Position numbers and translations under genes: made by a program
Virus record (IMG/VR): IMGVR_UViG_2811995017_000004
Span: 62,001 to 126,000 of that record
Reading direction: 5' to 3' (one strand)
From: an uncultured virus (IMG/VR IMGVR_UViG_2811995017_000004)
Lineage: Duplodnaviria > Heunggongvirae > Uroviricota > Caudoviricetes
DNA: 64,000 nucleotides
Part shown: positions 1,353-27,976 of the stretch, piece by piece
How the letters are laid out: every line of letters starts with the position of its first letter
Position numbering within the stretch: the stretch's first letter is position 1
The notes under the pieces: generated by a model
Told to the model about the DNA's origin: nothing
Seen by the model: the letters and a program-made list of their open reading frames with translations, nothing else
Database searches by the model: none

Positions 1353-1574
1353 TTACTTAACGGGAAACATGTAGCTAACATAAACGTCAATATCCCCATT
1401 CTTAAATACTGCAACTTTATCAACATCAGGCTCAATTTTGTTTATAATCTCTTTAGCATCCTTGTTTTTCTTCGGTGTATTTGCAGTAACAATCCAATTC
1501 CAGTAATTCCATTCAGAAATACATGCCTTGATCTCTTCAGGGATTCTATGTCCGACTGTATAAGCCTTAATCAT
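1353..1574 (-). CDS. hypothetical protein
   Basis: 73-aa ORF overlapping the upstream stop (ATGA coupling). Confidence 0.65.
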   Translation of the reverse strand: MIKAYTVGHRIPEEIKACISEWNYWNWIVTANTPKKNKDAKEIINKIEPDVDKVAVFKNGDIDVYVSYMFPVK

Positions 1575-7301: not shown

Positions 7302-7455
7302 ATTATCATTCCTTTTCTTTTTAATTCGCATTTTAATCGCGATAAATAATATAGAGTTATTCCTGTTGCAACCTACCCAATAAGGGGAACGCTGGCGGCT
7401 TAATGCCTAGTTAACGTCACCGCCACGACTGTTATACTGTGTCTGATATATCCTT

Positions 7456-16980: not shown

Positions 16981-19755
16981 TTGGACAATCAACAATTTTA
17001 TACATATAAATTTAATTCTTCGCGCCTAAAAGAATTTGGATACAACATTACTCTTTCTTTTCAAGAAGCACAGGAATACAACGAGGTAATTGCCTTATTT
17101 GATAATCAAATTTTAAGATCAATAAGAGACATTAAGAACGAAATCATCGATTATGCTTACCTTGAGACTCTTAACAAAGAGAAAGAGCATTTACAAAAAC
17201 AAAAGCATTCTCAAGAAATCTCTAAAAGATTAAAAGAAATTCAATCAGAAATCAATGAGATGCTTTTCGTACCAGAATACATAACGATCAAAATGGATCA
17301 CAACAGCCATTATAGAGACTTACATAAAAATGGATTGATCTTAAATAACAAACGGTTTGTCCGCTTCTCTTCTTCTGCAGGTCAAGCAAGAGTGTCCACT
17401 GTCGTATTTATCGAAGAAGAGACATCCAAAAGACTTAATGAAATCCTGGATAACGGAAGAGATTTAAACAAAGCCCTAGTCCCTTCTAAGTTTAATGCTT
17501 ATAAGGGATTGGCTGGCAGCGCCACTCAAGTAGTTAGCGCTCCCCGGTTTTGTTTAGTTCCTGATTATTATAGCGACACTAAAGTAAAAGTAAACTTTGT
17601 GACAGAAACAGATTGTGAAGATGATGACATTATCGAAGTTAAAGATATTGTTGAATCATTTAACCGTTTTGATGGCCAAGGCTTGATTAGCTATGAGATG
17701 GCGAAAAAATGGGCAAATGAATTAGGCTTAGATTATGTACCTGCACAATGGTGTATCAGACAGAACTTCATCAAAGGAATGCTTAACACCTTCCCCATTC
17801 ATGAGTTTTGTGAAAAAGTCAATAACGGCAATTACAGAATAAGAACTTCATATAAGGACGCAAATGGGAAACCGAAAATTGTTGACTTAAGAGACATCGA
17901 TGTAATCCTTACCGAAAGCCAATTTAAACTTTGGGACAGCTTCCCTTCTATTGAAGTTTATGAACATAATTGCGAAAAGAACAATTTAAAATGGGGAGTA
18001 TCACTGCATAGTCCTAAAAAAGATAAAGACATTTTGAAAATGAATTATCAATTTTTGCAGACACTGAACCTTAACAACGAGGACATTGAAAAGATCTGTG
18101 AGAAGTTTGTAAATTGGATTACTGGTGTTAATTCAGGGAACATATATTACACCATTCTGTTCTTGCTTGGAACTGACGTTACAGACGAAAAAATCATGAA
18201 TTACTTAGAGAAATCTGAAAATCATTGGGTTAAGTCCTTAATCGTGAACCCCAGTTTAATCAATGACAAATACATAAAAAAGAAAATATATGACCTTATG
18301 AAAAAGAAAATCCAACGTGGCTGCCTAGGGGATATTATCTTAGACGGAAATTTTCAGACGCTTGTCAGCGATCCCTATGCAATGATGCAGCACGTTTGTG
18401 GGTTAGAGGTAACGGGGCTTTTAGGTAAGCGTGAATACTACTCAAACTATTGGAATCAAAAAGGGGTCAAATATGTTGACAGTATGCGCGCTCCCCTCAC
18501 CTATCGCAGCGAACATTTGATTTTGAATCTTAAGCGAAATGAGGATTTGGATTATTGGTACAGATACAATTACACAGGCATCATTGTGAATGTGCATGGA
18601 TCTGAAACAATGAACTGGGCTGGTAGTGATTTTGACTATGACATTATTGCAACCACGTCCAATGAAACAGTATTAAGAGGGGTTTATAAAGATGAGCTGC
18701 CAGTTGCATACACCCCTCCCACTTCGACTAAAAAGGTTTTAACAGAGGAAGATTTGTTTAATGCAGACCTGTTTTCGTTTGGGTCAATCATTGGCTCGAT
18801 AACAAATAAAAGCACGAGTGGATATGCCCTTCTTTCGCAATTAGACGTTGATACTGATGAATATTTGACTACATTGAACCGTGTAAAGATGTGTACGAAA
18901 TTGCAAAGTGCTCAAATCGACAAAGCAAAAATTGGGAGAGAAGTTAAAGGAATTCCTTCGCGTTGGATCAATTATCAAAAGATCAAAAAAGATGATCCGG
19001 AGAAAACAAAACTGGAAAAGGAATTTCACAATAAAATCCTATTGGATAAGCATCCCTACTTCTTTATTTATTTGTATAAAGGCACAAAGAATAAGTATAA
19101 AAAACATGTCAAAACCTACGATATCACTTGCAAGCAGAAGTTTGGAATTAGCCTTGAGGAGCTAAGGAAAGTAAAACGAAAGACAAAGGAGCAACATGAA
19201 TTCCTTAAGCTATTTGAAAGGTTTAACCCTGTGATTGAGAGCGACTGTGTAATGAATAGGCTATGTAAATACATTGAATCTGTTGATTTCGGTATAAGAA
19301 GCATTGTAAACAAGGATGTTGACTATGAGATTTACAAGCTTTACATGGACGACACTATTGACTTTGATGAATCGCGTTACAAAAAAATAATGAAAGCATA
19401 CCAAAAACATAAGAAGAGCATTAATCAATCCTTTTCATTTGGAACAAGTAATGAATCTGATAAGAATCTCTATGATGCAGAGCTCTGTAACAATTTCTCA
19501 AACTCCCTAGAATTATTTAAGCAAAAGATAAGCGATATCTGTTCCAATGTTTATGAAGCAGTTAATTACCTTATTCGCTTATTCTATGTTGATGAGAAGA
19601 GCTCCAATAAAGAGATTCTATGGCATTTATACGGCCAATACATATTTGAAAACGTAAAAAGAAAACAAGACAGCTTCTACCTCCCTGTTTTGGATCAAGA
19701 CGGAGATATTAATTACCTTAATAAACACTATTCATTAAGAAAGGTGTGTCTATGA
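16981..19755 (+). CDS. yonO: YonO-type single-subunit (double-psi barrel) DNA-dependent RNA polymerase, divergent
   Basis: SSSAGQAR, DGQG, IKGML, SQFK.W, R.P...EH and DFDYD metal-binding loop; heads the late cluster. Confidence 0.85.
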   Translation: MDNQQFYTYKFNSSRLKEFGYNITLSFQEAQEYNEVIALFDNQILRSIRDIKNEIIDYAYLETLNKEKEHLQKQKHSQEISKRLKEIQSEINEMLFVPEYITIKMDHNSHYRDLHKNGLILNNKRFVRFSSSAGQARVSTVVFIEEETSKRLNEILDNGRDLNKALVPSKFNAYKGLAGSATQVVSAPRFCLVPDYYSDTKVKVNFVTETDCEDDDIIEVKDIVESFNRFDGQGLISYEMAKKWANELGLDYVPAQWCIRQNFIKGMLNTFPIHEFCEKVNNGNYRIRTSYKDANGKPKIVDLRDIDVILTESQFKLWDSFPSIEVYEHNCEKNNLKWGVSLHSPKKDKDILKMNYQFLQTLNLNNEDIEKICEKFVNWITGVNSGNIYYTILFLLGTDVTDEKIMNYLEKSENHWVKSLIVNPSLINDKYIKKKIYDLMKKKIQRGCLGDIILDGNFQTLVSDPYAMMQHVCGLEVTGLLGKREYYSNYWNQKGVKYVDSMRAPLTYRSEHLILNLKRNEDLDYWYRYNYTGIIVNVHGSETMNWAGSDFDYDIIATTSNETVLRGVYKDELPVAYTPPTSTKKVLTEEDLFNADLFSFGSIIGSITNKSTSGYALLSQLDVDTDEYLTTLNRVKMCTKLQSAQIDKAKIGREVKGIPSRWINYQKIKKDDPEKTKLEKEFHNKILLDKHPYFFIYLYKGTKNKYKKHVKTYDITCKQKFGISLEELRKVKRKTKEQHEFLKLFERFNPVIESDCVMNRLCKYIESVDFGIRSIVNKDVDYEIYKLYMDDTIDFDESRYKKIMKAYQKHKKSINQSFSFGTSNESDKNLYDAELCNNFSNSLELFKQKISDICSNVYEAVNYLIRLFYVDEKSSNKEILWHLYGQYIFENVKRKQDSFYLPVLDQDGDINYLNKHYSLRKVCL

Positions 19756-20551
19756 TAGACAAATTTAAGTTTAAAGAGAAAGAATATGCAGAAGCAATTA
19801 TTGAAAATGGATTTATTTCAAAAAACCTGAATTATGAATTGAAGCTATTGGCCAAGTATTATAAAGAATTAGGATATAAACCTAAAAAACGAGAAGAACT
19901 CCTTTATGATTTCTGTGAAAAAAACATAGAGAATTTTAGCCGGGTGCTATATTACAAAAAATTAATACAGTACTCAATCATGCAAGAAAAAAAGAAAATA
20001 TTTTAATCAATATAGATGAAATTGATATAACCGATAATGAACTTCGATTTATTGATTCTTTAGATATCAACCATCAACAAAAAAAGCTCTGCTTTACCCT
20101 TCTCGTCTTAGCAAAATTATATTCGACAGTTCATCACATCAAATACGGGGAGCATACAACAGAACACTATTTTGGCGGAAACAACAAAAGATACAAAGAA
20201 CTTATAGATGCTTCTCATACTTCGCTAACTGCCAACAAGCTGCATCAAAACATTGGAGAGTTGGCCACGAAAGACATTGTTGAGATTCGAAATAAAGGAT
20301 TCATTAAATTAAGTTTTATCTATGGTATTGAACCTGGCGGAGAAACGGCTATCAAAATAAGATCGTTTGACAGTATCGGCCTTTATTATGATCTGCACAC
20401 TGGTCAAAAGAAAGTTAAACCATGTGTCAATTGTCAAACCCCATTTAGATTTAAAAGTAACAAATCTAAATACTGCCCTTTTTGTGCATCCGTTATAGCA
20501 AAAGAAAAAACAAGGGCAAGAGTAAGAAAATATCGAAATGTAACGCTTTAG
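19752..20551 (+). CDS. RNAP-coupled protein with C-terminal zinc finger (apparent frameshift in A-run 19956-19961)
   Basis: ATGA overlap with RNAP; one added A joins ORFs 19746-20006 and 20261-20551; CVNC...KSKYCPFC. Confidence 0.75.
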
Positions 20552-20656
20552 AAAAACGCTAAAACCCTTGATATATAAGCGTTTTTGAACCATACATAAA
20601 TTTTTATTATATGGAAGGATACATAAAATTAAACTTACATTTAGGAGGAAATAAGA

Positions 20657-20931
20657 ATGAATAAAAAGAACTAATTGGTGCAGTTGCAGAGGCTACAGGA
20701 CTAACAAAGAAAGATGTGGAATTGGTTGTTGACTCAACATTTGATGTAATCACATCTGCTCTAAAAGATGGTGAAAAAGTTAAAGTGCACGGTTTTGGCA
20801 GTTTCGAAGTGCGAGAGCGTGCTGCACGCAAGGGGCGCAACCCTCAATCAGGGGAAGAAATTGAAATCCCAGCAACAAAAGCACCAGCATTTAAAGCTGC
20901 TAAAGCTCTTAAAGATGCTATCAAACAATAA
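20657..20931 (+). CDS. yonN: HU-family DNA-binding protein (apparent frameshift in A-run near 20665)
   Basis: MNK(K)[16 protein letters not shown]...[28 protein letters not shown]. Confidence 0.9.
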
Positions 20932-21115: not shown

Positions 21116-21362
21116 CCACTTCCATTTGAAGTGGGTCGGATAATAGTCATTTGCGAGGGATCGAGGTTAGATCGATCGTCTGTATCTCTAGGAGACAGGC
21201 AAGTGGCTATTATCGGGCTGGATATTGTCGATAAGACCTAAGCGCATAAAGACGGGCGAACCCATCGCAGTCTTATCATGGGGGACAATTAAGCTCACCA
21301 ATTAATTGCGGTGTACAGCTTCGGCTTGCACTTAAGGGGATTGGATGCGTCTTGTCCCCTTC
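21116..21362 (+). ncRNA. putative multi-domain structured RNA
   Basis: 16-bp stem 21139-21154/21199-21214 with G-U pairs, stems GATAAGAC/GTCTTATC and GGGGACAA/TTGTCCCC, cUUCGg tetraloop. Confidence 0.7.
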
Positions 21363-21457
21363 TAAAAATAATCTATCAGAGATAATGTGTAATAGTTGGC
21401 AATATATCAAAATTATATTAAAATCAGTCTATATTCCTAAAAAGGAGTCGATAGAAA

Positions 21458-21973
21458 ATGTCAAAAATCGCACTATTCGAGGCTCTTCCTTTAAGAAATA
21501 CTATTTCTAAACGTATTCAGGAACTCTTACAAGAACGTGACAGTGTTGCATATGTTGAGTATGATAAAGGCGAAGAATACATCAAACCTACAAAAAGTGT
21601 AGATCAAATTACATCTGATCTGGAAGAGGCTAGAAAAGATTATCGAGATCTGGTAGTATTAATGTCCGAAGCTAACCTTAATGCTAAAGTTGTATGGGAT
21701 GAAAAAGAATTGTCTATTACTGAGGCTCTTGAGTTAGCTCAGCAACTTAGAGGTGAAGCTAATAGACTTAAAAGCTACGGCCGTTCTAAAGAAACTGAAC
21801 GACTATCATCTTACTCTGATGTTATTAGCTATCGTAAAGCAATGTTTGATCCTGAGAAAATGCAATCTAAAGGATTAAAACTTGAAAGAATGGCGAATCG
21901 CTTATCAAATGCAATTGAAAAAGCAAATCATAACTATGAAATTGAGTTTGAGGCCGCTGACAAGTATCTATAA
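21458..21973 (+). CDS. DIP1984/DUF6847-like helical protein (SPbeta youA position)
   Basis: L.EAL.LR..I.KRI.EL...EAN...SITEAL...L.NAIEKAN two-fold helical pattern. Confidence 0.7.
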   Translation: MSKIALFEALPLRNTISKRIQELLQERDSVAYVEYDKGEEYIKPTKSVDQITSDLEEARKDYRDLVVLMSEANLNAKVVWDEKELSITEALELAQQLRGEANRLKSYGRSKETERLSSYSDVISYRKAMFDPEKMQSKGLKLERMANRLSNAIEKANHNYEIEFEAADKYL

Positions 21974-21989
21974 ATGCTGGGCTTTTGCC

Positions 21990-22313
21990 TTAGCTATGAG
22001 GGTGAAACTGATTTCACCTTGATAGCTGATGTAAAATCATCAGCACGGAGCATCAGAGAAGTAGAGAGCCGCCTTGGTTTAGAGCGTATCTGAACTGTAA
22101 TACCGATAAAATTACAACATTTATTTGTAGGATGGGAAACGGATAACGTTTAACAGCTTACGATTTACGTGATTTACGATTTGACGGACGTTAGATATTT
22201 AGTGTGGTCATATTTCGATAAAATAACTTTAACTCTGTTCTCTGCTGCTTCACTTTTAGCTCATCTGCCACGTGTAGAAGGAGTTCCTGAAGACGTCTTA
22301 TAAAGGCGTCTTT
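21990..22313 (+). ncRNA. putative structured RNA with internal short-repeat tract, ending at a terminator
   Basis: Closing stem 22047-22066/22233-22251, TTACGAT-type repeats 22144-22190, terminator AAGACGTCTT/AAGGCGTCTT plus T-tract. Confidence 0.65.
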
Positions 22314-22449
22314 TGTTATTTCGGCTTACTTAAATTTTTGCCGATTTAAAGGTTTTGGCTAACCCGTAATCAGCCACATTCCCTGTCGATCCGAAGGCTT
22401 GCGTTCCTACGTGAGCTACTTATGTAGGTGAGAGGGGCTTTATTTTTTG

Positions 22450-26223: not shown

Positions 26224-27976
26224 CTTCACAACAGATCGTAAAAAACACAGCAGAGGTATTAACCTCTTCAATAAAGGCAGGAACTTCAACAAGAAATCTA
26301 AATCAGAAAGACTAATGGATGGTATTGGTGCTTGGGCTTCTTTTTATCGAGCAAATCCCCATCGTTTTGTAAAAGAATACTTAGGGATAACCCTTAAACT
26401 ATTTCAATGTATTTTGATTTACATGATGGTACATAACCATTATTTTATGTATTTAGCTAGTCGTGGACAGGGTAAAACTTGGTTAACCTCGGTGTACTGC
26501 TGTGTTCAAGCCATACTATTTCCTGGCACAAAGATAGTCATTGCTTCAGGAACTAAAGGACAAGCAAGAGAAGTTATTGAAAAGATTGATGATTTGCGAA
26601 AAGAGTCTCCGAATTTAAGACGAGAAATTGAGGACTTAAAAACTTCAACTAATGACGCAAGGGTCGAATTCCATAATGGTAGTTGGATTAAAATTGTTGC
26701 ATCAAACGACGGAGCTCGCTCAAAACGTGCAAACCTTTTGATTGTGGACGAGTTCAGAATGGTCGATTTTGAGATCATCAGCAAAGTATTGAGAAAGTTT
26801 CTTACCGCTCCAAGGTCTCCAAAATATCTTGAAAAAGAAGAATATGCTCATCTAAAAGAACGAAACAAAGAAATTTACTTATCATCCTGCTGGTATAAGG
26901 TTCACTGGTCATATAATAGATTTGTCACCTATTTTAATGCAATGATGAAAGGATCAAAATATTTTGTATGTGGTCTTCCTTATCAAATTGCCATTAAAGA
27001 AGGATTGCTTGATAAAGATCAAGTAAAAGACGAAATGTCTGAAGAGGACTTTGACCCAATTGGCTGGTCAATGGAAATGGAAGCATTGTGGTTTGGAGAA
27101 TCAGAAAAAGCTTATTTTAAATTTGAAGATCTCGAAAAAAATCGAAAGCTCGCCTCTCCCCTATTTCCACCTGATTATTATGACCTCATTAAAGATTCAA
27201 ATTTTAAATTTGAAAATAAAAAACCTGGTGAACTAAGGTTAATTAGCAACGACATTGCTGGCATGGCTGGTAAAGATAATGACGCCAGTGTTTACACTAT
27301 TTTTAGATTAATTCCAAATTCAAATGGTTATGATAGACACATTGTTTATATGGAGAGCATAGTTGGTGGACACACAGGTTCACAAGCAACAAGGATAAGA
27401 CAATTATTTGAAGATTATGCATGTGACTATATTGTGCTAGATACTCAAAGCATTGGTCTAGGTGTATATGATGCTCTTTGTCAGCCTCTATATGATAAAG
27501 AAAGAGCTAAAGAATATGAACCACTCTCTTGTATCAATGACGAAAAAATGGCTGAACGTTGCACGTATCAAAATGCCGAAAAACTCATTTACAGCATTAA
27601 AGGTAACGCTCAGTTAAATAGTGAGATTGCAGTTCTTCTTAAAGACGGATTTAAACGAGGAAAAATTAAAATCCCTATAAATGAAAATGAAGGTCGAGAG
27701 TATTTGAAGCGATTCAAGGGATACGAAGCCTTACCAGAAGAAACCAAGGCCAAATTTGTTTCATCTTATGTTCAAATCACCTTGTTGATCAATGAAATGA
27801 TAAACCTTGAAGCTGAATACAGCGATAACGGACAAATCAAGCTAAAAGAACCTAAGAGTAAACGAAAAGACAGATATAGTTCCGTGGCGTATGGGAATTA
27901 TGTTGCTACCCTTTTAGAACGAAAACTCAACAAACAAACAGAATATGACATTGATGATGATCTTGTCTACTTTTAA
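26207..27976 (+). CDS. yonF: terminase large subunit
   Basis: ASRGQGKT Walker A, LIVDE Walker B, RNase H-like domain ending KDRYSS; 589 aa. Confidence 0.92.

Follow-up and report, generated by a model that had tools for sequence, protein, structure and literature searches.

A structured RNA family is tied to genes encoding proteins of the DIP1984 fold. Comparison of homologous loci gives good support to the view that this family is real, and it is previously undescribed within the literature searched. The example examined here lies in the window, a 64,000-nt stretch of DNA that forms part of a 129-kb virus record. There, a gene for a 171-aa protein is followed by an RNA domain of about 205 nt, which is closed by a stem and contains a tract of seven short units. 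A protein–RNA module had been put forward in a preliminary description of this DNA. Linkage of the RNA to homologs of the gene, covariation of its stems and a fixed number of units now strongly support, at the level of sequence, a conserved module of protein and RNA. No RNA partner of the DIP1984/DUF6847/3KDQ family was found in the literature searched, most subscription journals being outside it. The overall reading that best fits the locus, held with slightly more than even confidence, is that of a self-contained two-part module forming a defined ribonucleoprotein. This reading starts from what is observed directly: the gene, its fold, the structure of the RNA, the geometry of the repeats and the linkage between them.

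The locus in the window

An HU-like gene stands on one side of the gene and YonK on the other, with terminase and portal genes downstream, an order that resembles that of SPbeta-like Bacillus phages. Close homologs of the protein come from Bacillus species. The HU gene (window 20607–20931) has a 71-aa frame only, and the gene that comes after a 924-aa ORF appears to be in pieces (window 19746–20551); frameshifts or errors are possible in both. The promoter-like site that precedes the gene (Table 1) is a consensus match only, with four such sites found versus 6.7 expected in shuffles. Also upstream is a structured stretch at 21120–21365 on the plus strand (z = −3.7; no Rfam match), in place of which five related phages carry tRNA-Trp(CCA) directly before the gene. 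A Pistol ribozyme, scoring above the gathering threshold, occupies 7367–7430 of the minus strand.

The protein had been described as DIP1984-like. The fold bears this out, and the profile scores, which are significant and yet beneath the curated cut-offs (33.3 bits versus 70 for NF038048; 22.7 bits versus 27 for PF20935), mark it as a remote member. The top match of the predicted model (pLDDT 93) in both fold searches was 3KDQ, a Corynebacterium diphtheriae protein without assigned function, with the next matches far below (Foldseek E 8e-6; VIA Z 12.8 over 152 residues). As modeled, the 171-aa protein is thus a remote member of the DIP1984 (3KDQ) fold. Its two halves align with each other (HHalign 97.6%, E 4.6e-12) and each terminates in a conserved Asn, N73 and N157. 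Lys or Arg is conserved at positions 13, 18, 27, 37, 46, 63, 98, 144 and 148, and the overall charge is net acidic (28 K+R versus 32 D+E).

At 50% clustering, this protein has 228 relatives. The Bacilli subfamily to which it belongs gives strong matches (E < 1e-35) in 70 of 401 Bacilli genomes and is 16–27% identical to canonical DIP1984 members. Pfam and NCBIfam returned DUF6847/DIP1984 only, and a sequence search of the PDB gave nothing useful. No fusions of subfamily proteins were found. Eight longer proteins of the canonical family are mostly singletons resembling read-through, and no partner recurs among them, the evidence on fusions being weak. In BFVD, the fold recurs among uncharacterised proteins of large phages of Vibrio, Erwinia, Aeromonas, Cronobacter, Acinetobacter and Caulobacter, with weak matches in giant viruses.

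Table 1. Positions of the gene, the RNA elements and the flanking signals in the window
Feature	Position	Strand	Remark
Sigma-70-type promoter-like site, TTGGCA-17-TAAAAT	21396..21424	+	10/12; consensus match only
Gene for 171-aa remote DIP1984/DUF6847 protein, phrog_25222	21458..21973	+	Two pseudo-equivalent helical-hairpin halves
H1, long hairpin directly past the stop	21975..22045	+	From folding; candidate processing site
P1 closing stem, 5′ arm	22047..22066	+	Conserved AA-G-bulge-UG motif
P2 hairpin, GCGUA pentaloop	22076..22096	+	6/6 pairs changed on both sides
Tract, seven UNAC/AAAC units	22137..22189	+	AC spacing 7,7,7,7,9,8; final ACGGAC
P1 closing stem, 3′ arm	22233..22251	+	
Intrinsic terminator-like hairpin with U tail	22289..22313	+	

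The 347 nt past the stop codon (21974–22320) fold at z = −6.19, and 0 of 100 shuffles did as well. Every sequence quoted in the preliminary description is present at the locus. These include AGCTATGAGGGTGAAA at 21992–22007, TTTCACCTTGATAGCT at 22012–22027, GCTGATG at 22025–22031 and CATCAGC at 22038–22044, from which two hairpins past the stop had been deduced. Although the sequences exist, the two hairpins share 22025–22027 and are therefore alternatives rather than coexisting structures; the minimum-energy fold has the single hairpin H1, whose GCUG segment can pair either upstream or downstream. An H1-like arrangement was found in 21 of 59 subfamily representatives. The stem-closed domain stands as it had been proposed, with the two arms of P1 located in the window and covarying in homologs, and so does the terminator beyond it. 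The pentaloop of P2 is GNRNA-like. Just past the terminator is a DUF3800-VIII RNA (46 bits, window 22377–22441, plus strand); as this is absent from some close phages, such as L004, it was placed outside the module.

The repeat itself had to be redefined. TTACGAT had been read as the repeat; the unit is instead U-N-A-C followed by three free bases. There are seven units, the first of which is AAACGGA, one unit before the start given earlier, and the tract ends in ACGGAC. Among 386 tiles of the window, both strands included, the tract tile scored best for period-7 AC chains (4.6 versus 3.2 for the next). In the naked RNA of the window, part of the tract is predicted to be paired, and some 18 kcal/mol would be needed to force it open; across 49 homologs, the mean unpaired probability of the tract is only 0.49. 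No Rfam family covers the element at the gathering score in the window and 18 loci, and when the window was searched by E-value, along with 20 loci and 8 plasmid loci, all matches were at chance level. Inspection by eye of the loci revealed no shared promoter motif, and a candidate small ORF across the tract was rejected in the same way because its start codons are not conserved.

Conservation and loss of the RNA

If the RNA belongs with the protein, a conserved closing stem and repeat tract should lie 3′ of homologs, as the preliminary description had anticipated. This check was run, and the element does follow the gene, its stems covary and its unit count is fixed. Sequences 3′ of 142 gene copies were grouped into 76 clusters at 90% protein identity, 59 of which are of the subfamily, and each locus was compared with 200 dinucleotide shuffles using a period-7 AC-chain score that was devised after inspection of the data. 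The tract was significant (p ≤ 0.02) in 49 of the 59 subfamily clusters, which span 28–100% protein identity. The tract scored 4.55 on average; the corresponding means were 0.93 for the reverse strand and 0.84 for upstream DNA, and only the coding strand carries the signal. The ten clusters that did not pass include four that keep the clade-B hairpin, three with other anchors, two with broken genes and one without the RNA. Twelve subfamily loci fetched later, and picked partly from low-scoring groups, gave seven passes, one degenerate tract, three loci without the RNA and one broken copy.

The number of units is seven in 26 of 42 parsed tracts (17 of the 59 were left unparsed), the span is mostly 43–45 nt, and most other parsed tracts have one degenerate unit within that same span. 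Seven-unit tracts occur in two clades that are about 30–40% identical. AC–AC distances were counted 279 times at 7 nt versus 60 times at 5 nt and, in nine close phages, the fixed bases of the tract vary at 1 of 21 columns and the free bases at 14 of 32. When sought by its strict pattern, the tract was present in 16 of 401 genomes, 15 times behind the gene and once behind a gene remnant; the reversed-pattern control gave no match in the 401 genomes, and copies of the RNA by itself were sought by exact pattern only. A scan of viral sequences returned two matches, one being a known locus. The other, at 1501–1550 (minus strand) of L179, is a tandem of perfect TAACCAA-type heptamers, has a phage gene on either side and is unrelated to the module.

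Further support came from covariation. Twenty-eight clade-A RNAs were aligned by plain MAFFT, with regions cut by predicted duplexes and six atypical members excluded; on this alignment, RNAalifold found P1 alone and left the tract unpaired. For P1 and P2 together, 89.9% of cells are paired, 19 of 21 pairs show double changes and G-U pairs are frequent. This pairing exceeds that of 500/500 shuffles, and slid controls reach 46–50%. In clade B, the stop is followed by a hairpin that covaries and whose UGAGA loop, presumably of T-loop type, is invariant; here P1 is visible in per-sequence duplexes, and RNAalifold missed it because the alignment is poor.

The module is carried by prophages, lytic phages and plasmids. 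In lytic Agatevirus phages, its subfamily form sits among tRNA genes, and tRNA genes are present in 9 of 28 loci. Among 134 proteins of neighbour genes, the one family shared is that of a B3/4-domain gene, which a single clade has upstream. In a further protein clade, the third and a more distant one (L164, L165), the RNA has a different architecture with a short UNAC tract.

Each partner has at times been lost. In 11 genomes, the gene is open and has no adjacent RNA. According to the tree, a syntenic lineage of ten genomes (L159–L161, L183–L187, L189, L190) lost the RNA once. Here, S150, which is invariant in 64/64 RNA-bearing proteins, is changed in 10/10, and N157, K18 and K37 are lost in 8/10, while the genes stay open. 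This decay agrees with a role for S150, N157, K18 and K37 in RNA binding, as judged from sequence change in what is a single event. In L143, an unrelated gene without the RNA, all conserved residues are retained, and in two further RNA-less genes only S150 and a few more residues are changed. The reverse situation is found in L181 (G557:C10, about 26450–26750), in which the RNA is complete and the gene is cut to its last dozen codons. As a fully conserved gene can lack the RNA and an orphan RNA exists, the partners are not obligate.

Canonical DIP1984 genes and the rtc locus

Canonical DIP1984 genes were found in 19 of 401 Bacillota genomes and as nine plasmid copies from Cyanobacteria, alpha- and gamma-Proteobacteria, Actinomycetota and Enterococcus; a search of viral contigs with one pattern found none. 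They share the fold of the subfamily and also carry a conserved 3′ RNA with a 7-nt period, in four phyla (Bacillota, Cyanobacteria, Proteobacteria and Actinomycetota). AC–AC distances peak at 7, 14 and 21 in 18 of 23 anchorable sequences, one of them misanchored. The RNA nevertheless differs. The subfamily RNA is a simple P1-closed loop, whereas the canonical one has a helix that covaries well (5/5 pairs, 93% paired) and two weaker helices, one of which crosses it, so that its alignment points to a probable pseudoknot. Tandem canonical gene pairs (L098/L117 and L099/L116) have an RNA variant behind each gene.

The best clue to the role of the module is an Acinetobacter locus with the order rtcR-rbn-rtcB-hyp-DIP1984-RNA-rtcA (L157, L158). 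The record L158 is filed as phage and yet has housekeeping genes, and plasmid records of Acinetobacter often mislabel DIP1984 proteins as septicolysin. In Bacillota, rtcB is adjacent to the module in 0 of 61 genomes, 37 of which possess rtcB, and the neighbours of module genes are mixed across loci; the proposed link to RNA stress therefore draws on a single genus within the canonical clade. RNA-repair gene neighbourhoods were reportedly reviewed in 2016, and that review may bear on the rtc link.

A close parallel is Ro60 (Rsr) with its Y RNA, where a protein gene and an adjacent ncRNA on the same strand are found in bacteria and phages (PMC4201824, PMC7790460). In the latter source, the Salmonella operon rsr-yrlBA-rtcBA places Rsr and Y RNA as DIP1984 and its RNA are placed in the RtcR-rtcBA locus of Acinetobacter. 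The T-loop-type hairpins of some clades add to the likeness. There are also differences: the module protein is a 171-aa helical hairpin without a TROVE domain, its RNA has no tRNA-like or YrlA match, linkage to rtc is missing in Bacillota, and Y RNAs are not known to have a repeat tract. By this analogy, the likeliest role would be that the RNA holds or tethers its protein partner in the handling of RNA or tRNA stress. Such a role is proposed tentatively, at clearly less than even confidence, and any statement of what the module does is at present a guess.

A candidate ribonucleoprotein and its alternatives

In the proposed explanation, the gene and the structured RNA 3′ of it would be made as a single transcript. 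A protein oligomer, each chain of which contributes two similar helical-hairpin halves, would then bind the P1-closed loop, where in each of seven units, set 7 nt apart, it would read the fixed U and AC and leave the free bases unread. Fixed bases, fixed period and number, free spacers, a closing stem and a two-site protein together suggest an oligomer that clamps the tract; on these patterns, binding of the tract RNA by the protein is likely, and we would be fairly confident of it. Support for the repeats as multivalent sites of the protein is indirect only and comes from its two-half build, its conserved basic residues and the residue decay that followed one loss of the RNA. Counting against the explanation are the net acidic charge of the protein, the predicted pairing of part of the tract in naked RNA, and the genomes in which a conserved gene or the RNA stands alone. 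Seven units and a terminal AC could suit an eight-site tetramer or a seven-membered ring. TRAP and other oligomers read periodic short motifs, and the proposal of one motif per site with free spacer bases resembles them; fold, period and context differ and there is no ligand link. The P1-closed domain may be released from the mRNA at H1, an event to which about an even chance is given, and it would accumulate as a stable particle of fixed stoichiometry with P1 as the protective closing stem.

Alternatively, the RNA may never be separate. As a cis-acting 3′-UTR, the tract would be bound by the protein on its own mRNA to set stability or translation. This would explain why the RNA always lies directly 3′ of the stop on the same strand, with one tract per locus, and why the alternative folds of H1 adjoin the stop codon. 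Assembled RNA contigs lean weakly the other way. Those of run X7 cover 21441–22295 and leave the rest of 3 kb nearly bare; their depth is 134 on the ORF versus 864–1691 on the tract domain (6–12 times higher); as contigs also break at strain variants and contig depth cannot rank parts of one gene, this difference is a weak hint. The X7 contigs stop at 22295, inside the terminator hairpin, and run X1 gave a 199-nt contig at 22051–22254 that matches the ends of P1, both again weak hints; cover in runs X4 and X5 is patchy and uninformative. Other clades show T-loop-type hairpins and probably a pseudoknot, which are elaborate features for a UTR, and one genome has an intact orphan RNA. Cis-acting feedback is thus considered unlikely.

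The free bases might instead be the message. Here, the DIP1984 fold would be a widespread RNA-clamping oligomer that holds the fixed UNAC bases and exposes period-7 free bases, which jointly pair with a target as a gapped guide. The logic is that of VIPR (Vipr plus vrRNA), where, in the main text of the preprint (bioRxiv 10.64898/2026.10.21.760802), a small gene lies beside an RNA alternating fixed GGY and variable NN in a fixed number of repeats. As described there, VIPR has period 5 and ten GGY/NN units, as opposed to period 7 and seven UNAC/NNN units in the module; no Vipr entry occurs in the lists of fold matches of the protein. That main text does not mention the DIP1984 family, and the period-7 cluster it describes, unlike the module, is an array plus its reverse complement without a protein partner; its supplements and database list 20,149 RNA–protein candidates, among which the module may be. 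In keeping with a guide, free positions of units 2–6 carry 1.4–2.0 bits across 33 tracts. Against it, no match exceeded controls in the gene itself or the 1.5 kb preceding it, with 70 code/gap settings in 33 loci, and 60 settings applied to the 129-kb phage record gave no target, apart from one marginal 11/12. A second tract is present in 0 of 33 loci, free bases change at about the rate of linkers (14/32 versus 23/40 and 25/43), and the +1/+2 slip does not stay at the same unit. Because the target tests failed and each locus has one tract, a guide function is held to be quite improbable.

An equally doubtful possibility is that the RNA acts as a decoy that captures some RNA-binding protein of the host, the product of the upstream gene being linked without reading the repeats. 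Sponge RNAs of the CsrB/RsmZ type carry repeated short motifs, as does this stem-closed RNA, and RNA and gene are each able to persist alone. However, the 7-nt period tracks the protein family across the four phyla named above, the flanking consensus shifts with the protein clade (position 5 is G in 63% of clade A versus C in 64% of clade B), and the strict pattern is found nowhere else in the 401 genomes.

A toxin–antitoxin variant, which had also been suggested, was weakened. In it, a toxic protein would be neutralised by the repeat RNA, as in a type III-like or abortive-infection pair. The module does have two parts, a repeat RNA beside a single small gene and a terminator, and is mobile. 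Type III systems (ToxIN, CptIN, TenpIN) have an RNA with repeats of about 35 nt 5′ of an endoribonuclease gene, whereas the module RNA is downstream with 7-nt units. No nuclease fold was among the fold matches of the model and PADLOC gave no match for the module. The RNA is dispensable in the 11 genomes with intact genes, one of which has all conserved residues; both this lack of obligate partnership and the open genes of the lineage with altered invariant residues count against such a pair, making it very unlikely. Heptad DNA repeats can occur in plasmid partition sites, but a centromere- or iteron-like function of the tract as DNA is hardly credible given that the flanking stems covary with many G-U pairs, the signal is on the coding strand alone and contigs from RNA libraries cover the locus.

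With the ribonucleoprotein as the favoured reading, a protein family that had a solved structure and no function gains a specific RNA partner and a putative binding code that is directly testable. The subfamily is common and resides on both temperate and lytic phages, and a sister of its RNA occurs in four phyla. The fixed seven-by-seven tract lends itself readily to EMSA and cryo-EM, and would be either a new scaffold ribonucleoprotein or a new guide format. If the guide reading were true, the module would be an RNA-programmed system parallel to VIPR, built on a helical protein and found on plasmids as well as in bacteria and phages, with large phages and giant viruses added on the strength of the fold.
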